The notes under the pieces were generated by a model. The model did not search any database. It was not told the DNA's origin and saw nothing but the letters and a program-made list of their open reading frames with translations. Made by a program: the position numbers and the translations under genes. This document shows positions 217-10,093 of a stretch of DNA of 16,462 bases, in pieces (position 1 is the first letter of the stretch; each line of letters opens with the position of its first letter). This DNA comes from a virus. Its lineage: Duplodnaviria; Heunggongvirae; Uroviricota; Caudoviricetes. The stretch is taken from positions 1-16,462 of IMG/VR virus record IMGVR_UViG_3300000059_000156; one strand, given 5' to 3'.

Positions 217-1011
217 ATGACAACTCAAATTTCCGCACAAACTCTTTCCCCAATCTCTCATCAAAATACGCTTGTCATCACCACCGAATTGCTTGCACAA
301 CTGTATGGGACTGAACAAGTCCGAATTCGTCAAAACTACTCTCGTAATGAAGGGCGGTTTGTTGAAGGGAGACATTATTTTTTGGTGGAAGGCGATGAAC
401 TACGGGAGTTGAAACGCAAAGTATCTCAAAGCTACTCTGTGAAAATTGCCAAAAATGTACGTACTATCATTCTCTGGACAGAACGCGGCGCAGCTCGCCA
501 TGCCAAAATGCTGGAAACAGAACAGGCCTGGGAAGTTTTCGAAAAGCTGGAAGATTGTTATTTTAGCCAGCGTCCAGAGAGGCGGAGTACAACTACCGAT
601 GACCGTACTCCCTTACGTGATGCCGTTAATATGCTGGTCGGTAAGAAAGGCATGATGTATCCCGATGCCTACACCATGATTCATCAACGCTTCGCCGTCT
701 CTCACATAGAACAACTGTCACAGACGCAAATGTTAGAGGCGATTGAATACATCCACTGCCTGCTACTCGATGAAAATCAGCCAACCATTCCGGATTTTTC
801 TTTTATCACCACTATCAAAAATGGAAAAGTGACAAGGATGCGCCATGTTGCCAAAGGCGAACATCTGATGACCTTTGACGCTTTCAAAGAGATCGCTGAG
901 CGGGCAGGGTATCTGGTGATCCACAGCGACAATCTGCGAAGTATGACACTGGATAAATTGATGGTAATGGGGAAAAAGTCGGCTGTATCTGTTGCTGATT
1001 CAGCATTTTGA
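217..1011 (+). CDS. Phage antirepressor-like protein (ORF6N/Bro-N-type N-terminal domain)
   Basis: 264-aa ORF with SD-like GTGAGGT about 8 nt upstream of the ATG. The N-terminal stretch VITTELLAQLYGTEQVRIRQNYSRNEGRFVEGRHYFLVEGDELRELK fits my recollection of the ORF6N domain pattern of phage antirepressors. Family assignment is from memory, not a search. Confidence 0.7.
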   Translation: MTTQISAQTLSPISHQNTLVITTELLAQLYGTEQVRIRQNYSRNEGRFVEGRHYFLVEGDELRELKRKVSQSYSVKIAKNVRTIILWTERGAARHAKMLETEQAWEVFEKLEDCYFSQRPERRSTTTDDRTPLRDAVNMLVGKKGMMYPDAYTMIHQRFAVSHIEQLSQTQMLEAIEYIHCLLLDENQPTIPDFSFITTIKNGKVTRMRHVAKGEHLMTFDAFKEIAERAGYLVIHSDNLRSMTLDKLMVMGKKSAVSVADSAF

Positions 1012-1390
1012 CAGGTTGTTTGGGGTGGAAATACTCTATTTGCGCTTAGGATACTTGTTAGCTACTTCCACTTTTGTCACAAAGCGGACTATCTGGCTGA
1101 GCTGAGGGTCCGCAGTGAGTGAGGATCGAACATTTAAGCGTCGGTACTGATGACGGATTTGAGGTATTTAAAATATTACAGGAGCTAGTGTGGATGTGAC
1201 AGACATAAAAGTGGATGCAGTCAGAAAAGATATATGTATAGCAGGCTTCTTCGAGGACTAGATCAATCAATAAGATTTAGATAAAATTGCAGTGTTAAAT
1301 AAAAAGACTAGTAGTATTTAAACTTTAAGTGCGTTAGTAAAGTCGTGCAATTATATAAAACTAACGTTTTCTGAATGTTTGGAGAGTAAA

Positions 1391-2086
1391 ATGTTAGAAC
1401 CGCCAAAGAATTATAATGAAATGTTACCCATGCTCCATAAGGCAACTTTTATTACTACATTTATATTTTACCTATCATTGGTTATTTATGGCTACATACC
1501 ATTGGTTGGCATTAATACCAAGTACATTCCACCAATCAAAGACTACGAAGAGTTTATTAAATGGATATTAACATTCGGTATATTACCAATTGCATTCTCA
1601 ATTTTTTGGTCTGTGATTAGTGGAGTTTTAGATCTACATAATAACGTGGCAAAAATTCTTGGAATAAGAAAAGCATGGAATAATTACTTAATTGTTAAAC
1701 CATTGGCGCAAGTTGCAGGCGTTACAAGAAAATTAACTAGTGATGAATCCTCCAAAGTAATGAACAAACTGTATTACCCAGAAGTTAATGAGTTAAAAGA
1801 TAGACATTATGTTGAGCTCTTCTGGAATAAAGTTTATTACTTTTGGGTTTTCTTTGAACATACTGTGATTGCATTTATTACTGTTTTAGTAATAAGTTTT
1901 GCTAAATTAACCCATTTATTCTCTGTGACTGGTTCTTTAAAAATTCTTTGGTTGTGGGTTATTTTTATTGTTGTCTTTAATTTTCTTATTTTTATAGCAT
2001 CCGTTAAACCCAGAACTGAAGGCCAAGTCAGACAAATACCTGATGATAAGATAAAGGAATTTTTTAAAAATAACAGTATTTTTTAA
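1391..2086 (+). CDS. Hypothetical integral membrane protein (about 4 predicted TM helices), AT-rich island gene
   Basis: The ORF track starts at a TTG at 1379; I prefer the ATG at 1391, which has SD GGAGAG (1381-1386) 4 nt upstream. Four long hydrophobic stretches (e.g. FITTFIFYLSLVIYGYIPLVGI, ILTFGILPIAFSIFWSVISGVL, VYYFWVFFEHTVIAFITVLVISF, ILWLWVIFIVVFNFLIFIASV). Very AT-rich coding sequence. No family recognised. Confidence 0.6.
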   Translation: MLEPPKNYNEMLPMLHKATFITTFIFYLSLVIYGYIPLVGINTKYIPPIKDYEEFIKWILTFGILPIAFSIFWSVISGVLDLHNNVAKILGIRKAWNNYLIVKPLAQVAGVTRKLTSDESSKVMNKLYYPEVNELKDRHYVELFWNKVYYFWVFFEHTVIAFITVLVISFAKLTHLFSVTGSLKILWLWVIFIVVFNFLIFIASVKPRTEGQVRQIPDDKIKEFFKNNSIF

Positions 2087-2752
2087 ATGAGGCTAGTTTT
2101 GAATTACAAAATAAATGGAATGATTATACGTTCAGAAAATGCAGCAAAACCGCATACTATGCCATCTAACTATCTCTGTAACTATATTGAAAATTCTGTT
2201 AAAAATGGCATAGCCCTTGATTTCGGATGTGGAAAGCTTAGATATTCAGAACAACTAGTAAATAAATTTGAAGCTGTGACATTTTTAGATTCCAGAAAAC
2301 AGTTAGAAAGAGTGCAAATTATCAGAGGCGTACAAACCACAATTCCAGAGTATGTGGCTAATAATTATAAAAATGCTAATGTTGTCCCTTTTGAAAGTAT
2401 AGATAAAATAAAAGATAATTATGATTTCATACTTTGCGCAAACGTGCTTTCCGCAATTCCATGTAAATCAACAATTTACAAAATCATCAATGAGATTGGG
2501 AGATTATTAAAAAATGATGGTGAAGCAATTATTGTTAATCAATACAAAAGCTCATATTTCAAAAAGTATGAGACTGGAATTAAACATTTGCATGGATATA
2601 TATACCAAAACTCTCGCAATGCTTTCTATTATGGCTTATTGGATGAGAATATTGTAAGTAAAATTTGCTTAGATAACAATTTAGCAGTAATAAAGTCATG
2701 GAGCAAAGCTGGCAGTTCATATGTGGTTGTTGGTAAAAATAAACATAATTAG
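2087..2752 (+). CDS. Class I SAM-dependent methyltransferase-fold protein (substrate unknown; no DNA-methyltransferase catalytic motif seen)
   Basis: Start ATG overlaps the upstream stop (TAAATG at 2084-2089), indicating translational coupling. Canonical Rossmann-MTase motifs at canonical spacing: motif I ALDFGCGK (aa 43-50), post-I acidic residue in VTFLDSR (aa 64-70), motif II YDFILCANVL (aa 112-121), motif III LLKNDGEAIIV (aa 140-150). No (D/N)PP(Y/F/W) motif, so not a typical N6A/N4C DNA MTase. Confidence 0.6.
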   Translation: MRLVLNYKINGMIIRSENAAKPHTMPSNYLCNYIENSVKNGIALDFGCGKLRYSEQLVNKFEAVTFLDSRKQLERVQIIRGVQTTIPEYVANNYKNANVVPFESIDKIKDNYDFILCANVLSAIPCKSTIYKIINEIGRLLKNDGEAIIVNQYKSSYFKKYETGIKHLHGYIYQNSRNAFYYGLLDENIVSKICLDNNLAVIKSWSKAGSSYVVVGKNKHN

Positions 2753-3079
2753 TAAATTTAAAAATAATATTAGAGGGTGCCATTTTCTTATTACTTATTA
2801 ACTCACTGGGGTAGGGGCAACACGCCCCACCTCATCAAGTTACTGCAGGATTACAGACTTTTGTCAAAACGTTGGAAAAATTCAGTACAAACTTTTCCAT
2901 GTTTTTCCTAATCATAGATAATGATGCTCACTTATGTTAACAGCTTCTTGTACATAACGGTCTTCTTCAACAGGACAGCTATAAGTGAAGAAATAAAGTC
3001 GATAAACTATAAAGAGGCTCCAAATAAATATTATTCAATGAAGCCTGCTGTTTATTATTTGTTATTATTAAATCGCTAC

Positions 3080-3979
3080 TTATAATTCAACAATTTTTAG
3101 TATTATATCAATATTATTTAGCCTTGCAATCTCTGATGAATCGTTTGCAATTTTATCTTTTAAATTATCAATGTTAATCATATCTTCAGAGCTAATACAA
3201 ACCATATCACCTTGGTTAACTTTTGATTTGTTCACTATGGCTTGAATAACAGACAGATCGTCCATTACACCTCTCAGGAATTTAACCATGCTTTGATCCT
3301 TGAAATCAGATATCGATTTTGAACGTTGCTTACGTTGGATTGTTCCTTTTGTAATTATTTCGTTAATTTCTTTTAAACCGGCAAGCATATCAGATATGCT
3401 TCCTTCGCAACTCATCCTGTGTTTAATAGCATTGCGATTAATAACATTGAGTATTATTTCGAGTGAATCTCTATCATCCCATGGCGATAATAATGTATAA
3501 TCCTGATGGCGATGAATGGCATCAAGCATATCAAGGATCATATTTTCATCTGCTTTATCGCAAAGTTCATTTACAAAATAGCTGGGGTCGATTACTTTAC
3601 AATAACTTGGAACTGAGCATTTTGAGCTTTTACAAAACCCAAAAATATATAAAAAAGGGTATATGTCTTTTAGACTCTTTCCTGATTTATTTTCTTTTTC
3701 AAAGGCTGCGATTGTTTTTTTAATTTTTGCCGGGGTTGCTTTCGTTGTAACTTGAACTGCTATCATGTTTTTATTGTCAGCTAAATCAATGGCGGGAAAG
3801 TTAACTTTAATCTGATTCATGTTTTCCAGTTCCCCCATTTTCAGTGCGCGAAACATATAAATGGTCAATGACTCAATCATTCTTTCCATGTCATGAAAGC
3901 CAGTCTGTTTGCGTTGTTCGATATAAAGCTGAAGTAGCGCAATATCTTTCTGTAAGTTACTAATAAGTGGGGCAATCAT
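3080..3979 (-). CDS. SMEK-like domain protein (N-terminal SMEK-type domain, uncharacterised C-terminal region)
   Basis: 299-aa ORF with AAGGA SD 9 nt upstream of the ATG on the minus strand. The N-terminal segment NQIKVNFPAIDLADNKNMIAVQVTTKATPAKIKKTIAAF (aa 55-93) matches the hallmark I remember for SMEK domains (N-(F/A)-x-AIDL-x-D ... IA-x-QVT-(S/T) ... K-x-K-x-T-(I/L)-x-x-F). From memory only. Confidence 0.6.
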   Translation of the reverse strand: MIAPLISNLQKDIALLQLYIEQRKQTGFHDMERMIESLTIYMFRALKMGELENMNQIKVNFPAIDLADNKNMIAVQVTTKATPAKIKKTIAAFEKENKSGKSLKDIYPFLYIFGFCKSSKCSVPSYCKVIDPSYFVNELCDKADENMILDMLDAIHRHQDYTLLSPWDDRDSLEIILNVINRNAIKHRMSCEGSISDMLAGLKEINEIITKGTIQRKQRSKSISDFKDQSMVKFLRGVMDDLSVIQAIVNKSKVNQGDMVCISSEDMINIDNLKDKIANDSSEIARLNNIDIILKIVEL

Positions 3980-4512
3980 AGCTAATAATCCTTTTCAATT
4001 AAGTAGGGGATGTGTTTGAGCTTCTTTATTTGACTGTTAGTTTAATTTCTTGTTTTCATATTAACAAGCTCTACAATTTTATCAAGATTTCTCAAAAACT
4101 AATCCTCCGTGTAAATCCACTAACTATACTGAATTTATTCCGCTGTAAAACATGTCCGCTCATGGCTGTGAGTTCAACGGGTCGATGTAACGCCATCCAC
4201 TCAGTAAAATTGTGTAATTCCAGTGAGCAGGCGAATCTTCAGTATGCTCTAGTTTCTTACTCACACCTGCTTATGCTTTAACTATGTACAATGTAGATAA
4301 ACTCTCATGTTGATTTATCGCCATGATCACATTTCCGGAAGAAAAATTTTGTTTGTAACCTTGCTAGATGAGACAGTATAGATATCATTACATATGAAAC
4401 AGTACATTAGGGAACACTGAAGGCCGTAACTTTAAAAAATATAATTAATTGTACATAATTTTATAACCATCAAGATGGTGGCAATTATATAAGTAATAAT
4501 AAGGGTTGATTA

Positions 4513-5865
4513 ATGATTAAATTCACAGAAAAGGAAATACAAAATTACATATGGGAAAATAGGAACAATTTTCCCGAACTGCTTATTGAACCTGCAGGTC
4601 TTGAAGTACTTGAATTCAACGAAGATCTCTCTGATGTAACAGCACAACTGCTAATAAAAAACAGAATAAATAGTAAACTATCCAATCTTCACTCTAAGCT
4701 TTATGGACTGGAATTTATCGGCTGCGAAGTTCCTTTAGAACAAAATTCAAACTCAACAATTAGAGCCGATTTTTTGGCTATATTCTGTGATGATACTGGG
4801 CTTGCTGTCATAGAGCTTAAAAAAAGTGAACAAACTGAAAGGCAAGCATTCACTGAATTGTTAGCATATTCAAACCATATGACAACATTATTTCCATCCA
4901 TGACGAAAAATGACAGTGTGTATATTTTAATATCACCAATGGAAACCAGAATAGCACGTGATGCTGTCATCCAAAGTTTAATATTTGACAATAGGGATAT
5001 CATTACTTTAATTCCAACATTCTCTGATCCTCTTGATATTACATCTCTTAAACTTGAATTATGGATTCCAGACCAAACAGAGTTAGCGACTTTCTCAAAT
5101 ATTGCATTTAGAGAAGATAATTTTAGTGTCTGTAAATTATCCTGGGAGTATGACGCAGAGCGATGGGATGCAGCTAGAGGAGAAGAACTTTTACATTCAT
5201 TTGTTAGTCAATTTGATAACATTTCCTGCCTTGCAGCTCAGTATATGGAAGAATCTGGAGTTCATGGTTTTACTTATTGCTCTCAGTTATGGCCTGAATT
5301 ATCTCAGGCATTACCTTTTACGAATTCATTAGTACTAGTTGGCATGAATCCTTATGCTGTCGGGAGTGTCCAGCATTTATCCACAGAAGACGATAACTAT
5401 GATGATATTCCAGACCCAAATTCTTACACTCCTCACATATCTGAATTAATTGGTAAACTAGGTGAAGGAGAACTATATGAGGCTAATATTGATGTCCTAA
5501 GTGGTTTACATTGTACATGGATCTCTCAATTATATCGTATAGGTAAGCAGGTAATTGAACTCACCACTAGAAATACAGATGGGAAATACGTCCACGTTGA
5601 ATATGGCTTTATGAATTGGGAAATCTATCAAAGGTCTCTACTTGAGGATGTTTTCTGTGAAAACTTCGCTATTAGGTCTACAGGTTTAATACGACATCTC
5701 TATACTGACATTCTTAAATTAGATTATGATTTTTGTAAAAATAACGGATTGGAAAATCACCCTATTCATGGAGACATGCCATACTTAGGTGTCAATTTTC
5801 TTAAATCCCACCAGCACTTTAGAGAATTTATTTTGCGAATGTTCTATGCCGAAATAGATGCGTAG
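4513..5865 (+). CDS. Predicted PD-(D/E)xK-family nuclease-like protein with a large uncharacterised C-terminal region
   Basis: 450-aa ORF with SD AAGGG 8 nt upstream. N-terminal motif E72 ... RAD86FLAIFCDDTGLAVIE101LK103 has the D-x15-ExK spacing typical of restriction-endonuclease-fold active sites. The remaining ~340 aa are unrecognised. AT-rich. Confidence 0.65.
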   Translation: MIKFTEKEIQNYIWENRNNFPELLIEPAGLEVLEFNEDLSDVTAQLLIKNRINSKLSNLHSKLYGLEFIGCEVPLEQNSNSTIRADFLAIFCDDTGLAVIELKKSEQTERQAFTELLAYSNHMTTLFPSMTKNDSVYILISPMETRIARDAVIQSLIFDNRDIITLIPTFSDPLDITSLKLELWIPDQTELATFSNIAFREDNFSVCKLSWEYDAERWDAARGEELLHSFVSQFDNISCLAAQYMEESGVHGFTYCSQLWPELSQALPFTNSLVLVGMNPYAVGSVQHLSTEDDNYDDIPDPNSYTPHISELIGKLGEGELYEANIDVLSGLHCTWISQLYRIGKQVIELTTRNTDGKYVHVEYGFMNWEIYQRSLLEDVFCENFAIRSTGLIRHLYTDILKLDYDFCKNNGLENHPIHGDMPYLGVNFLKSHQHFREFILRMFYAEIDA

Positions 5866-6422
5866 TGAGATTTTTTGGTTTATCTCTGCTGGAGAAAATT
5901 CATGGGTGAGGAAAGAGATAGATAATATTGAAAATAAAATCTTCAAAAGATGTGGAAATAAAGACATGATCTAAAATTTTTTGGCATTCATTTCATATGA
6001 AACAGCCCTTCTAAAAACTATACAGGCATGGATGATATTTTCTTATGATTTTTTAGTTGTAATTTATCTTTACTATATAATATATGGGGGGATTGTCGCC
6101 AGCTATTCACCGACTATCAAATATCAATAACTCCTGGCAGTTCTGTAAGGTATAGACATACAAATCGGCCTGAAGATTACGGATAGTTTCTTAAGGTCCG
6201 TTCCTGGCACAAAGTGGACTGTCAAATGAAATTCGGCTCCACGCCATAGATGTGTCAGCTCATATCTTATCTAATACACACAATAACTTTCTCATTCTTG
6301 GAGAATTATTTTTTTAAGGGTAGGTGTTGACGTTAGAGCAAAAGAATGGTGATTTTTTTGATGTGTATTACGTTGGAACTGATGGGAATAACTATCTGTT
6401 TTCAACGCACTGCTAATTTATC

Positions 6423-6444
6423 AAGGCCCTTTGATCAGGGCCTT
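6423..6444 (-). terminator. Perfect 8-bp hairpin just downstream of the minus-strand ImmA operon; possible terminator or protein-binding palindrome
   Basis: AAGGCCCT (6423-6430), loop TTGATC, AGGGCCTT (6437-6444), ~25 nt beyond the stop of the 6469-7074 gene on the minus strand. No clean U-tract on either strand, so terminator function is uncertain. Confidence 0.3.
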
Positions 6445-6468
6445 CGAAAGACTGTTGGACCGAGAGAG

Positions 6469-7074
6469 TTACTTGCGTTTAAAAAGGTATTTTGTCACGA
6501 CCAGCACGAGGCCGAATACCTCTGTCAAAGTACCGCCCATGTACAACTGGAGCGTTAAGTCTTTAAATACAAGCCATTCAGCACCAGTGGCAAAAAATAC
6601 ACCATTCATTATCAAAAGCTGGCAAGCAAGGATAATAAGGAACCATTTGCCATAGCGTTTTTTTAGATCGATTTCAGCTTCAAAATCTTTGTTGTTGAGT
6701 TGTTTGCGCTCATGCTCAGTATCAAGTGAATTCACCTGTTTCACAGATGTGAACTCGGTCAAGATTTTACTCTCAGTACGGGTGACTTGTTGAGAGGGGG
6801 TAGGAATTGGAATTCTTTTGATTGACGCAGCTACAGCCATTTTGCGAGCTTCGGCAGCTCTTTTTCTGGCTATTCCGTGAATACGGGCAGACGGTTTTTT
6901 TGGAGCGTGCGAAACCTTTGGCTGAGGTGAAGTTTCGTCAGGAGACTGAACCGGAGTTTCATCGTCCTCCGGCTCAACCTCTTCTGCTAACTGACGGTGT
7001 AGGTTGAGGGAATCCTTCAGTCGGCGTGCAACTTCCTGTTTGAAACGGCTGTTAAAATCGTCATCCGATGGCAT
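6469..7074 (-). CDS. Hypothetical membrane protein: acidic/Pro-rich N-terminal region, basic middle, two C-terminal TM helices
   Basis: 201-aa ORF starting 9 nt after the stop of the ImmA-like gene (operon). C-terminal hydrophobic segments WFLIILACQLLIMNGVFFATG and LTEVFGLVLVVTKYLF; N-terminus EEVEPEDDETPVQSPDETSPQP looks low-complexity/disordered. Confidence 0.7.
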   Translation of the reverse strand: MPSDDDFNSRFKQEVARRLKDSLNLHRQLAEEVEPEDDETPVQSPDETSPQPKVSHAPKKPSARIHGIARKRAAEARKMAVAASIKRIPIPTPSQQVTRTESKILTEFTSVKQVNSLDTEHERKQLNNKDFEAEIDLKKRYGKWFLIILACQLLIMNGVFFATGAEWLVFKDLTLQLYMGGTLTEVFGLVLVVTKYLFKRK

Positions 7075-7083
7075 TCTAAAGCG

Positions 7084-7572
7084 TTACCCCAACCTCAAGT
7101 TCTTTAAACGATAAGTCATCGCATCGTCAGATACGCCAAAATAATGCGCCATTATATAACTTGGTTGGCCGTCAGCGTGCAGTTTTCTGACCTCATCAAC
7201 CGGCATCAGAAGTTCTGCTGCGAACTTGTTCGCAAAAATTTCATCAGGATGCGTTCCGGCGCTTGCGGTTTCGCCACGTAAATCAACGTACTCATATTCA
7301 TCACTATGCGATGCTTGCCGGGCGATGTAATGCCCCAACTCATGCCCACATGAAAAACGTTGACGAACTTTGTTGTCATCACTGTTTAGAAAGATCGCTG
7401 GATCTTGATCTTTTTGTTTAATCAGTGCGCCAGAAACTTTCCCAGGAAGATCGGTAATAAAAACATCTAATCCCATGTCGTGAGCAATTTTCGCTGGATC
7501 AACAGGGAAACCACGCCCGCACCAGAACGTGTCCAGCACTCGCCGGGCGTGCTCTCTTGGGTTGGTAGCCAT
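7084..7572 (-). CDS. ImmA/IrrE-family zinc metallopeptidase-like protein
   Basis: 162-aa ORF with strong SD (GGAGGAG) upstream of the ATG on the minus strand. HEXXH zinc-binding motif in SCGHELGHYIA; size and motif context are typical of ImmA/IrrE (COG2856-type) peptidases of mobile elements. Confidence 0.8.
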   Translation of the reverse strand: MATNPREHARRVLDTFWCGRGFPVDPAKIAHDMGLDVFITDLPGKVSGALIKQKDQDPAIFLNSDDNKVRQRFSCGHELGHYIARQASHSDEYEYVDLRGETASAGTHPDEIFANKFAAELLMPVDEVRKLHADGQPSYIMAHYFGVSDDAMTYRLKNLRLG

Positions 7573-7948
7573 AGCTCCTCCAGTTACTGCATTACGATTA
7601 ATGGTCGAAATATAGACAGCATGTTCCGTACCACATTCCTGTAAAAGTGCAAATTCTGCACTTCTGGTACGATATTAACTGTTAGTAGTAAAGTCTTCCA
7701 GATAAATCACTTTAAAATCTTGTGAATTGCTTGCTTTTTACGCTGCATTGTGGATGGCTCAATGTTTCCAGTAAAAACATACAGGATAATCATGAGATTA
7801 GTGGTTTTTTAGGCGTCCATATGTTTCTGAAAAATACAGGTCTAACCTGATCTTATCGTTGAGATTTTTTGTACTCAGTATGTGTGAACGATTCGACCAG
7901 GTGACTGTGTACGTGAAGAAGACCGCCCTTAATATTTTAAATGTGCAA

Positions 7949-7964
7949 CCCCTCAGAAGAGGGG
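7949..7964 (-). terminator. Candidate terminator of the 7971-8204 minus-strand gene
   Basis: Perfect 6-bp GC stem CCCCTC / GAGGGG with 4-nt loop AGAA, 7 nt past the stop codon on the minus strand. The downstream minus-strand sequence (UUGCACAUUUAAAAUAUU) is only moderately U-rich. Confidence 0.35.
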
Positions 7965-7970
7965 CTACTC

Positions 7971-8204
7971 TCACTTCTGCAGTATCTCGCCAATACCTGC
8001 CAGATTCTCGTCCATCTTGTCACCGTTTTCGATAAGGATGGAGTTGAGCCGATTCAGTTGCATAGCAATTTCAAGTTTGATTAAGGTATCCACCGATACA
8101 CCAGTTTCTTTTGCTAACTTAGTAAGAGCCGCAGCTCGATTGGCTAAATTAAAATCATCGAACTCATAACGACTTCTGCACGGCTGGTTGCCTAACGTAC
8201 CCAT
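7971..8204 (-). CDS. Hypothetical small protein (77 aa)
   Basis: ORF with SD GAGGAA about 8 nt upstream of the ATG on the minus strand, followed by a hairpin. No family recognised; the segment LTKLAKETGVSVDTLIKLE could be HTH-like, but that is speculative. Confidence 0.6.
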   Translation of the reverse strand: MGTLGNQPCRSRYEFDDFNLANRAAALTKLAKETGVSVDTLIKLEIAMQLNRLNSILIENGDKMDENLAGIGEILQK

Positions 8205-8446
8205 AGTGATTCCTCATGATATAAAGACCCAACAATATAAATTACCAGGCACATCATAAGATGGGGTTCCAGCCCATATTTTCAAATATTTGCAAGTATC
8301 ACCGTTCAGTCTAAAAAGTTGGATGATGATTTAACGAGCCATAACAAAACCCTGCCTCGGAGGTTTTTTCTTTTTTATAGAACTCAGCGGCGTGAAAACG
8401 AATAATAAATTGTGCAAATAATGCAATTTTTTTATTCGAGGTAATT

Positions 8447-9088
8447 ATGAAAACCTTCTATGAGGACTGGCCTGAAACTTTCGTTAGCCGGTTAGATATG
8501 TTACGAGCTCTGGATGATCGCGGCTCTACCCGGAGGCTCTATCTTGAGCGGACCGGGGCAATATTTGACGCTCTGGCAGAAGAGATACGTACAGCCGTTG
8601 CCGGGCATCCTGAAATCGACGCGAGTGAACTTGATATCGGGCCGCTGTATCGCTATTACAAACGTGGAGAAAAGGGGAATTCGCTGGCTGACTTACTTAT
8701 TAAATTGGCTCCACCAACCTGTGAACGGGTTCGTATATCTCCTGAAGTGTACACAATCCCGTATTTGTTTTTTGCACTGTTGATAGCGCAAGGCGCTGAC
8801 AACGATGCCCGCGATTTTTTCAATATGATGATGCGACCGTTAATCATTGCTTACCGTTTCAAACAACTGGCGCGCTACCTTGGCACGAAGGGCGGAGGAC
8901 GGCCACAGCACAGATTAAAAAGCGAAGCCATTGAACTGGCTGATCGTTTTTTTACTGAAAACCCGACAGCGCCATTATCGCGTGGTGTGCAATACATATC
9001 CGGTATTTTTGTGGCGAAATACTCTGACCCACCTGCAGCGTCGACGATTAGAAAATGGTTAATTTCAATTTACAGGAGTGATAAATAA
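8447..9088 (+). CDS. Hypothetical protein (213 aa), prophage accessory gene of unknown function
   Basis: ORF with SD GAGG 6 nt upstream of the ATG; backbone-like GC content; no recognisable motif. Confidence 0.7.
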   Translation: MKTFYEDWPETFVSRLDMLRALDDRGSTRRLYLERTGAIFDALAEEIRTAVAGHPEIDASELDIGPLYRYYKRGEKGNSLADLLIKLAPPTCERVRISPEVYTIPYLFFALLIAQGADNDARDFFNMMMRPLIIAYRFKQLARYLGTKGGGRPQHRLKSEAIELADRFFTENPTAPLSRGVQYISGIFVAKYSDPPAASTIRKWLISIYRSDK

Positions 9089-9096
9089 TGACCATA

Positions 9097-9145
9097 AACG
9101 GTTTAATCCCCTATAAAACCGTTTAATAAAATTCACGACGTGAAT
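9097..9145. promoter_or_regulatory. Two dyad elements downstream of the 8447-9088 gene: a 9-bp inverted repeat (possible terminator) and a 15-bp perfect palindrome (possible operator)
   Basis: AAACGGTTT (9097-9105) / AAACCGTTT (9116-9124) separated by 10 nt; then the palindrome ATTCACG-A-CGTGAAT at 9131-9145. Confidence 0.3.
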
Positions 9146-9239
9146 ATAATTGTTCATTATTCCCTCATTGTATCTGGCGTTATGACAAATGCCATAAAAT
9201 ACTGTATAAATGCACAGGTAATGGCGTTAGGGGGAAGAC

Positions 9240-9419
9240 ATGAATATTCAAGAATCTATAGGCGAACTACCGGAAACATGCCGGGCTGTTATCAAGCGTA
9301 AGGACGGACACATCGTTGGTGTGCGTGTTCTGACTGATGATGAACGGATTGCCAGCCTGATGGCGTTTCTCGAGTTGGCAGAAATAGCTGGATATACTAT
9401 TACACCCCCTGACGCGTAA
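9240..9419 (+). CDS. Small hypothetical protein (59 aa), absent from the supplied ORF track
   Basis: My own translation: MNIQESIGELPETCRAVIKRKDGHIVGVRVLTDDERIASLMAFLELAEIAGYTITPPDA. ATG preceded by SD GGGGGA (about 6 nt spacing); TAA at 9417-9419 followed by a terminator-like hairpin. Just under the likely 60-aa cutoff of the track. Confidence 0.45.
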   Translation: MNIQESIGELPETCRAVIKRKDGHIVGVRVLTDDERIASLMAFLELAEIAGYTITPPDA

Positions 9420-9435
9420 AACACGGTATAATATC

Positions 9436-9467
9436 GGTGCTGGATTGAACACCCGGCACCATTTTCT
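9436..9467 (+). terminator. Candidate intrinsic terminator after the small 9240-9419 ORF
   Basis: Stem GGTGCTGG (9436-9443) / CCCGGCACC (9453-9460), 8 bp including one G-U pair, 9-nt loop, followed by ATTTTCT (9461-9467). A TATAAT hexamer also sits at 9427-9432 just upstream. Confidence 0.4.
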
Positions 9468-9496
9468 GAACACTGCCGCGCCACCTGGAGTTAACC

Positions 9497-10093
9497 ATGG
9501 CGCAGCATTCATTTATCAGGGTATCCGGCGGTTCGCTAATACCCGCGACACCAGACACGCAACGCTGGTTGACTGAACGAGTCAAACCAGGTGCTGTTGT
9601 GTATGCAGATTTCAAACAGGCGCGTAATCCCGCGTTTCATCGTAAATTTTTCTCACTTCTCAACCTGGGCTTTGATTACTGGCATCCGTCCGGAGGGGCT
9701 ATTTCTCCTGCGGAGCGCGAACTGGTTCACGGCTACGTTAAATTACTGGCGTATTACGGTGGACACGGCGATGTCATGGCAGAGCTGGCTGATCAGTATC
9801 TTCTCGATGAATCGGAAAAGCGCGCGGGGAATATCAGTGCGGTGAAGTCGTTCGAGGCGTTTCGCGCATGGGCGATTATGGAAGCTGGGTTTTATGACGT
9901 TCATCAGATGCCAGACGGCAGTTTGATGCGCGTACCTCGTTCAATCTCGTTTGCTGCGATGGACGATCTTGAGTTCGGTCAACTGTATTCAGCCGTTTTA
10001 GATGTGCTGTGGAATTATATTTTGTTCCGCACGTTTGCCTCTCAGGAGGCCGCTGAAAATGCTGCCGCGCAGCTGTTGGATTACACATCATGA
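9497..10093 (+). CDS. Conserved lambdoid-prophage nin-region protein (I recall it as DUF1367-like)
   Basis: 198-aa ORF with SD GGAG 6 nt upstream; its stop overlaps the next gene's start (ATGA). Family name from memory of similar prophage proteins, not verified. Confidence 0.75.
   Translation: MAQHSFIRVSGGSLIPATPDTQRWLTERVKPGAVVYADFKQARNPAFHRKFFSLLNLGFDYWHPSGGAISPAERELVHGYVKLLAYYGGHGDVMAELADQYLLDESEKRAGNISAVKSFEAFRAWAIMEAGFYDVHQMPDGSLMRVPRSISFAAMDDLEFGQLYSAVLDVLWNYILFRTFASQEAAENAAAQLLDYTS

Follow-up and report, generated by a model that had tools for sequence, protein, structure and literature searches.

A variable slot in a lambdoid Escherichia coli prophage carries a mosaic AT-rich cargo island with two candidate anti-phage nucleases

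Results

An AT-rich island lies between the antirepressor gene and the p201-ImmA module

The stretch of DNA analysed here, referred to as the window, comprises all 16,462 nucleotides (nt) of the IMG/VR virus record IMGVR_UViG_3300000059_000156 and derives from a lambdoid E. coli prophage that carries an AT-rich island of four genes. The window contains, in order, a C4 antisense RNA, an ORF6N antirepressor gene (217-1011, + strand; Pfam ORF6N 3e-21, phrog_4792), the island, a minus-strand module (6469-7572) encoding the membrane protein p201 (6469-7074) and an ImmA/IrrE metallopeptidase (7084-7572; Pfam Peptidase_M78 7.7e-18, PADLOC capP 2.4e-25), followed by DUF1367, DUF1364, the Q antiterminator, the lysis genes and terminase. 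This gene order places the island between the early/replication genes and Q, in a hypervariable slot of the prophage that has the replication and antirepressor genes on one side and the Q late-regulator region on the other. The island has four open reading frames (ORFs), none of which is broken: an orthologue of K-12 YmfE (1391-2086, +), an orthologue of K-12 YmfD (2087-2752, +), a 299-aa (amino acid) SMEK-domain protein that we call SMEK-300 (3080-3979, -) and a 450-aa nuclease (4513-5865, +). The domains named in three of these four proteins by a preliminary description, made from the sequence alone, were confirmed.

The G+C content of the island is 33.5% over positions 1049-6469, compared to 43-54% in the flanking phage genes. 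In 500-bp sliding windows it was 0.44-0.46 up to ~1250, 0.30-0.37 for ~1250-6500 and 0.45-0.59 beyond, and the minimum-G+C 5.1-kb window of the whole 16.5 kb begins at 1251. The G+C content at third codon positions (GC3) was 0.25-0.30 in the four island genes and 0.41-0.63 in 13 flanking phage genes. The sharp drop in base composition reported in the preliminary description is borne out by these values. The island that it placed at 1230-6100 is likewise real, and its bounds are slightly wider, at 1049-6469 relative to the empty site described below.

Among 5426 complete E. coli genomes, five carry the full island, with all four ORFs intact in each. A matching IMG/VR contig of 52.5 kb also carries the island, and the island proteins are on record from other Escherichia species. 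Purifying selection acts on each of the four genes (dN/dS, the ratio of nonsynonymous to synonymous substitution rates, of 0.07-0.27 against homologues). Neither of the two outcomes that the preliminary description had named as counting against its proposal, a uniform base composition or a place among core genes, was found. An Rfam scan detected no RNA family inside the island, promoter and terminator scans gave nothing above shuffled expectation, and a repeat search found no insertion sequence (IS)-like or transposon-like terminal repeats.

The slot is empty or differently filled in related prophages

The empty site was sought with a synthetic junction query consisting of the 3' half of the ORF6N gene and p201. 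The query matched one genome, that of E. coli GPEC172, in which ORF6N and p201 are convergent with their stop codons 24 bp apart. Relative to this site the insert corresponds to window positions 1049-6469 (5421 bp, from blastn against the empty-site prophage and composition). The island is flanked by an imperfect 12-bp direct repeat (10 of 12 positions identical) that is present as a single copy in the empty site. The left copy, TATTTGCGCTTA (1037-1048), is what remains of the final codons (K-R-K-stop) of one p201 allele and matches the allele of the empty site. The right copy, TACTTGCGTTTA (6470-6481), covers the end of the intact p201 coding sequence, with the stop codon at 6469-6471.

The same slot is filled by a different 3.3-kb cargo in ST131-type prophages. 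This cargo is bracketed by an 81-bp repeat (72 of 81 identical) of the p201 3' end, at 2531-2611 and 5954-6034 of the representative locus L003, and includes genes for an LprI-family protein (L003 2680-3603, -; Pfam 4e-7) and a 232-aa protein (L003 4792-5490, +) with a weak match to the PADLOC RTasTM model (DRT-associated transmembrane protein, E=1.8e-5). Comparison with this prophage by blastn delimited the variable part of our window to 1049-6195, and the adjoining 274 bp (6196-6469) are common to both cargo types and missing from the empty site. The repeat footprints, together with the lack of IS-like or transposon-like ends, speak for recombination with its anchor in the 3' end of p201, and the sequences suggest that cargo may arrive along with a different p201 allele. 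In strain EC28 the island is retained and the adjacent p201-ImmA module (6381-7937) is swapped for two unrelated hypothetical genes; the p201-ImmA pair is a swappable module of its own, outside the AT-rich insert.

The slot is thus a variable cargo hotspot of prophages, with conserved flanks that enclose either nothing or one of several cargoes, and the cargo in our window is compositionally distinct (G+C 0.335 vs 0.43-0.50) and non-core (5 of 5426 genomes). The accessory insertion between the antirepressor gene and the ImmA operon that the preliminary description had proposed is confirmed by the empty site and the alternative cargoes. The comparison with related prophages that it had recommended yielded an empty slot in GPEC172 and different cargo in the ST131-type prophages. 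Its claim that the island genes are dispensable for the phage is also supported.

Mosaic organisation of the island

The island is almost certainly a mosaic of cargo ('moron') genes. Composite cassette A (1221-4166), which contains the ymfE-like, ymfD-like and SMEK genes, has 83% nt identity to a different lambdoid slot (locus L002) located between hokD and the replication genes. Smaller units were resolved within it, as positions 1380-2733 alone have nt homology to K-12 e14 and to an Enterobacter P2-like prophage, and positions 3111-4036 alone to SMEK-only loci. Cassette B (4189-6180) consists of the 450-aa gene with its own flanks and has 82% nt identity to Serratia inhibens.

The distribution of the genes among E. 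coli genomes follows the same boundaries. The ymfE-ymfD pair (ymfED) was found in 434 genomes, in 5 at 98% identity, in 146 at 80-90% and in 283 as the K-12 e14 type. SMEK was found in 152 (5 + 146 + 1), the ymfE-like/ymfD-like/SMEK trio at 80-90% in 146, and the 450-aa gene in 5. The SMEK gene was accompanied by a ymfED pair of non-e14 type in 151 of its 152 genomes. Since each cassette occurs alone elsewhere and the homology boundaries are discrete, the four genes are not one system. The single 'novel system' anticipated in the preliminary description gives way to three autonomous cassettes joined end to end, each found alone elsewhere, which were probably brought together by recombination rather than by transposition.

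The 450-aa protein is a stand-alone PD-(D/E)xK nuclease

The 450-aa protein has a NucS/RecB-like PD-(D/E)xK core at residues ~60-185, in which the motif residues E72, D86 and E101-x-K103 are invariant. Residues ~190-450 (~250 residues) form conserved alpha/beta domains with invariant E262, N279, E378 and D404, and with H416 and D421 present in at least 90% of homologues. No Pfam, NCBIfam or PADLOC family matched the protein above threshold. Weak matches were to Pfam HSDR_N (E=0.0027, below the cut-off), PADLOC REase_II (E=0.0023) and phrog_30092, and a profile search of the PDB with the family returned nothing significant. The family carries no annotation and has no model in PADLOC-DB v2 (2023), the source of all defence models used here.

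Homologues of the 450-aa protein form 231 clusters, all of ~430-480 aa. A genome scan recovered 61 loci in Cyanobacteria, Bacteroidota, Elusimicrobia, Alpha-, Beta- and Gammaproteobacteria, Campylobacterota, Chloroflexi and one archaeal metagenome-assembled genome, and tblastn against 50,697 phage genomes gave no match. No conserved neighbour was found across 64 loci, suggesting that the protein acts alone. In a P4-like satellite one homologue occupies the interval from Ogr/Delta to the integrase, another directly precedes a SIR2_2 and DUF87 (HerA-like) pair in Serratia inhibens, and a third adjoins an OLD-type ATPase-TOPRIM protein.

The catalytic-core fold and the E...D...ExK motif are shared with NucS/EndoMS, Shedu SduA, Hachiman HamA, Can2 and type IV restriction enzymes, and the 450-aa protein has the RecB-like nuclease fold with D/E/K catalytic residues seen in NucS/EndoMS. 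This likeness is structural only. NucS has an architecture of ~230-250 aa (Pfam DUF91/NucS), whereas the 450-aa protein is twice that size with ~250 extra conserved residues, carries its nuclease in the N-terminal half, lacks the N-terminal DNA-binding domain of NucS and does not match Pfam NucS. It also differs from the stand-alone PD-(D/E)xK defence nucleases in having no DUF4263, helicase partner or CARF domain.

SMEK-300 combines a SMEK/Mrr-like nuclease domain with a private C-terminal domain

SMEK-300 matched Pfam SMEK_N (PF21941, 2.8e-23) and NCBIfam NF033859 (1.1e-31). The SMEK/Mrr-like PD-(D/E)xK nuclease domain spans residues ~5-120, and this N-terminal region matches the solved Mrr domain of Kordia Mrr-APAZ, which is the partner of a short Argonaute (PDB 26bh_D, E=7e-9). 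Residues E36, D65, D68, Q76, T78 and K85 are invariant in the nuclease domain. The C-terminal domain occupies residues ~150-299, with invariant residues that include R182, H187 and E192. When residues 150-299 were searched against 1.84 billion representative proteins, 50 proteins matched, and all full-length matches were ~290-320 aa with the domain at the same position, indicating that the domain is limited to the SMEK-300 architecture.

The SMEK domain has been described as a nuclease effector of short prokaryotic Argonaute (pAgo) systems (PMC10810196). SMEK-300 shares the N-terminal nuclease domain with the SMEK/Mrr-APAZ short pAgo systems (SPARDA-like), as its N-terminal region, and no other, matched the PADLOC model Aga_REase-PNTD1-PNTD2 (6e-20). 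In contrast to these systems it has no APAZ domain, the PADLOC match covering profile positions 7-109 of 463. No Argonaute model was matched among the nine window proteins scanned (217-9088), and the neighbours of the SMEK-300 gene are ymfD and the 450-aa gene. Unlike short pAgo systems, SMEK-300 would work, if at all, without a guide-based sensor.

SMEK occurs alone in strain EC05 and in Enterobacter, Citrobacter, Cupriavidus and Pseudomonas. Its homologues are found as single genes beside integrases, resolvases and IS elements, and others adjoin SymE and TacA-type (TacAT) toxin-antitoxin genes or a DEAD-helicase/DUF87 cluster. A Citrobacter homologue has a Lamassu-type operon (LmuB_C) on one side and an AAA_15/21 pair on the other. 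In Pseudomonas (locus L010, 6001-9736), the gene of a homologue with 65% identity has three genes in the same orientation after it, for a 219-aa protein (weakly HEPN-like), a SLATT_5 membrane protein and a protein of 309 aa, and the cluster may be a multi-gene variant.

The ymfE-ymfD pair is a self-sufficient unit

The first two island genes encode orthologues of YmfE and YmfD of the K-12 prophage e14. The YmfE orthologue is a polytopic inner-membrane protein of 231 aa with four hydrophobic segments (60% identity over 230 aa to K-12 YmfE, E=4e-105). The YmfD orthologue is a class I S-adenosylmethionine-dependent methyltransferase of 221 aa (68% identity over 216 aa to K-12 YmfD, E=2e-110; Pfam Methyltransf_11 and TehB above the cut-off). 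The ymfE stop and the ymfD start abut (2086/2087), and the two genes are probably translationally coupled. The pair of a membrane protein and a methyltransferase noted in the preliminary description is indeed present, but it is not new, being that of e14, and its designation as a hallmark of conflict systems comes down to location.

An AlphaFold2 model of the YmfE orthologue was all-helical with a predicted local distance difference test (pLDDT) score of 88, and a profile search of the PDB with the YmfE family gave nothing significant. We also considered YmfE as a SLATT-type effector and rejected this, as it had no Pfam match and BLASTP gave E>1 against the SLATT_5 proteins next to the Pseudomonas SMEK homologue. 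YmfD weakly resembles the small-molecule methyltransferases TehB, BioC and UbiG, with Methyltransf_11/12 family matches, and the DNA-methylase motif (D/N/S)PP(Y/F/W) is absent from the sequence of the orthologue. YmfE might dock YmfD at the membrane, where YmfD could methylate a small-molecule, lipid, quinone or protein substrate, a speculative arrangement. A knockout of ymfD has no growth defect (PMC12096079).

The two genes were paired in 27 of 27 IMG/VR viral loci, with SMEK alongside in 22, and the pairing is also kept in K-12 and, at ~40% identity, in contig L014. In K-12, ymfED occupies the int-proximal end of e14, with lit in divergent orientation. The pair was also found after lambda P with a BLUF-EAL gene as its neighbour, flanked by two integrases, within a tail region of P2-like type, and after ogr in a P2-like prophage. 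As ymfED is found in such varied settings and always as a pair, it is best regarded as a self-sufficient two-gene unit, an autonomous moron that recurs in similar kinds of places. We also considered that ymfED might work with a third, changeable effector such as Lit, SMEK or the TIR-like protein described below, and rejected this in view of the lambda P/BLUF-EAL, two-integrase and P2-like tail settings.

The e14 arrangement lit-ymfE-ymfD has the same abutting operon order, orthologous genes and a similar AT-richness (G+C of 0.31 for ymfE and 0.35 for ymfD in K-12), and there too the neighbour is a single-gene abortive-infection-type protein. The two arrangements differ in this neighbour, which in e14 is the Lit peptidase, encoded in divergent orientation at the prophage end, and in the island the convergent SMEK nuclease in an internal slot. 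In the P2-like prophage of Enterobacter asburiae (locus L015), a 300-aa protein with a PADLOC TIR-effector match (9058-9960, -; 2.9e-8) is encoded ~1.7 kb from ymfED and adjoins a CI-type repressor gene.

Features of the flanking region

A C4 antisense RNA was detected at 80-166 (+; Rfam RF01695, 77.7 bits, E=4e-14) directly upstream of the ORF6N antirepressor gene. The two form a control module in the style of P1/P7 immI in a lambdoid prophage.

On the other side of the island, p201 is a 201-aa protein (phrog_5346) with a C-terminal TM segment that is co-transcribed with the ImmA/IrrE peptidase. The capP match of this peptidase is shared with the CapH/CapP and ImmR/ImmA protease switches. In contrast to these switches, no helix-turn-helix partner was identified beside ImmA/IrrE, and the partner is instead the 201-aa membrane protein. 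It could be that p201 is a protease-controlled membrane effector. A GC-rich hairpin (GGCCCT...AGGGCC, ~6424-6445) lies immediately downstream of the p201 stop codon, within 6196-6469, and is possibly the terminator of the p201 operon.

A stretch of 32 nt in the p201 3' end (6487-6518) is a 100% match to a CRISPR spacer of E. coli 23CRST027, the array repeat of which is GAGTTCCCCGCGC(C/T)AGCGGGGATAAACCG. In the window this stretch is preceded by AAG (6484-6486), a canonical type I-E protospacer adjacent motif. By this perfect match in p201, a natural E. coli spacer targets the present prophage family.

Discussion

The best overall explanation of these data, and the one we lean towards, is that the island is mosaic cargo whose nucleases guard the lysogen against superinfecting phages. 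For the two nucleases, the genomic context makes a role in anti-phage defence probable. Each nuclease would be a self-contained sensor-effector, in which the C-terminal region, whose role as a sensor is a guess, might keep the nuclease inactive until an infection cue is received. Once the cue is detected, DNA would be cut, as in type IV restriction or by Shedu, and the lysogen would thereby be immune to superinfecting phages. A more tentative proposal, which has somewhat less in its favour, is that the 450-aa protein, found in 61 species genomes from Cyanobacteria to the archaeal one, is the first member of a new family of single-gene anti-phage nucleases that spans phyla, with its C-terminal 250-residue module as a new infection sensor. 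For ymfED a defence role is doubtful, and the more speculative idea that YmfE and YmfD form a membrane-anchored defence or exclusion system with a methyltransferase that acts on something other than nucleic acid is rather unlikely.

The surroundings of the 450-aa family are suggestive of defence neighbourhoods, since the 148 flanking ORFs comprised five of AbiLi/AriA/AAA_21 type and two of Old/GajA type as well as ArdA, integrases, a resolvase, PIN proteins and a C5 DNA methylase, although these counts carry no formal enrichment test. Other observations weigh against defence. No island protein matched a complete defence-system model of PADLOC-DB v2, so that the profile search suggested in the preliminary description did not reach a known system. 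Outside their own families, the C-terminal halves of both nucleases had no informative structural or sequence match (for SMEK-300, none outside its own architecture). The SMEK motif has Q76-x-T78 where the canonical E-x-K is expected, so that catalytic competence of SMEK-300 is assumed. The fold search with YmfE returned generic helical matches only (Z <=8.5 with large root-mean-square deviation), and ymfD is on a 2025 list of experimentally uncharacterised E. coli genes (PMC12096079). An Aeromonas homologue of the 450-aa protein is a lone insertion among housekeeping genes (transketolase/alcohol dehydrogenase).

Several of these points fit an alternative in which the cargo serves other ends, with YmfED modifying the envelope for lysogenic conversion or stress tolerance and the nucleases acting in toxin-like addiction, competition between elements, or DNA repair or recombination for the prophage. 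The unmatched defence models and the Aeromonas locus are expected under it, NucS itself is a repair enzyme, YmfD is akin to small-molecule methyltransferases of the TehB/UbiG type, and SMEK homologues lie near toxin-antitoxin genes. However, all three cassettes recur in cargo positions of mobile genetic elements and the nucleases are also found beside known defence systems, the sparse and patchy distribution across phyla is typical of horizontally exchanged defence genes, and the 450-aa protein lacks the DNA-binding domain of NucS. We therefore regard a non-defence role as possible, above all for ymfED, but clearly less likely than defence by the nucleases.

The data on distribution, motifs and dN/dS speak against the three remaining explanations. 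One integrated conflict system, in which the membrane effector, the methyltransferase and the two nucleases act together, would account for the adjacency of the four genes in a single AT-rich block and for the company that SMEK and non-e14 ymfED keep in nearly all E. coli genomes with SMEK. It is very unlikely and is largely refuted by the distribution data, as just 5 of the 151 genomes with ymfED and SMEK also have the 450-aa gene, ymfED occurs without SMEK in e14 and in P2-like and other lambdoid prophages, SMEK is alone in several genera, the 450-aa family has no conserved neighbour, and each cassette has discrete nt-homology boundaries. Equally, the presence of one methyltransferase and two PD-(D/E)xK nucleases in a single island, with the weak matches of the 450-aa protein to HSDR_N and REase_II, could indicate a restriction-modification unit in which YmfD methylates host DNA and SMEK-300, the 450-aa nuclease or both cut unmethylated DNA. 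This is highly improbable given that YmfD lacks the (D/N/S)PP(Y/F/W) motif and matched small-molecule class I families but no DNA methylase family, that its partner is always a membrane protein and never a nuclease, and that both nucleases are widespread without a methyltransferase partner. Finally, the island might be foreign DNA that is silenced, decaying and no longer functional. Its composition makes silencing by H-NS plausible, and an island so AT-rich is probably H-NS-bound; it is also rare among E. coli genomes. That it is decaying is just as improbable, as none of the five E. coli genomes has a broken ORF in the island, dN/dS against homologues is 0.07-0.27, and the catalytic residues are invariant across phyla.

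As a mosaic cargo island in a variable slot, the element is of a well-known kind, and one of its cassettes is orthologous to named K-12 genes and another has a named domain. Variable cargo and defence hotspots of temperate phages and satellites (P2/P4) have reportedly been described by Rousset et al. in 2022. The present slot resembles the P2/P4 and lambdoid moron hotspots in its conserved flanks, its empty or alternatively filled state, its AT-rich cargo and its mix-and-match cassettes, and differs from them in that its cargo holds no validated defence system, the PADLOC-DB v2 matches being weak or at the level of domains. To our knowledge, the slot between the ORF6N antirepressor gene and the p201-ImmA module of this prophage family has not been described.

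The locus provides a cleanly delimited example of how such a slot is filled, in which the empty site, both alternative cargoes, the repeats at the flanks and, to the base pair, the cassette junctions are defined. If all candidates proved negative, the island would be an ordinary moron cluster. As it stands, it offers three compact, clonable anti-phage candidates, two of them stand-alone nucleases with uncharacterised C-terminal modules, and if ymfE and ymfD proved active, a role would be assigned to the K-12 y-genes next to lit.

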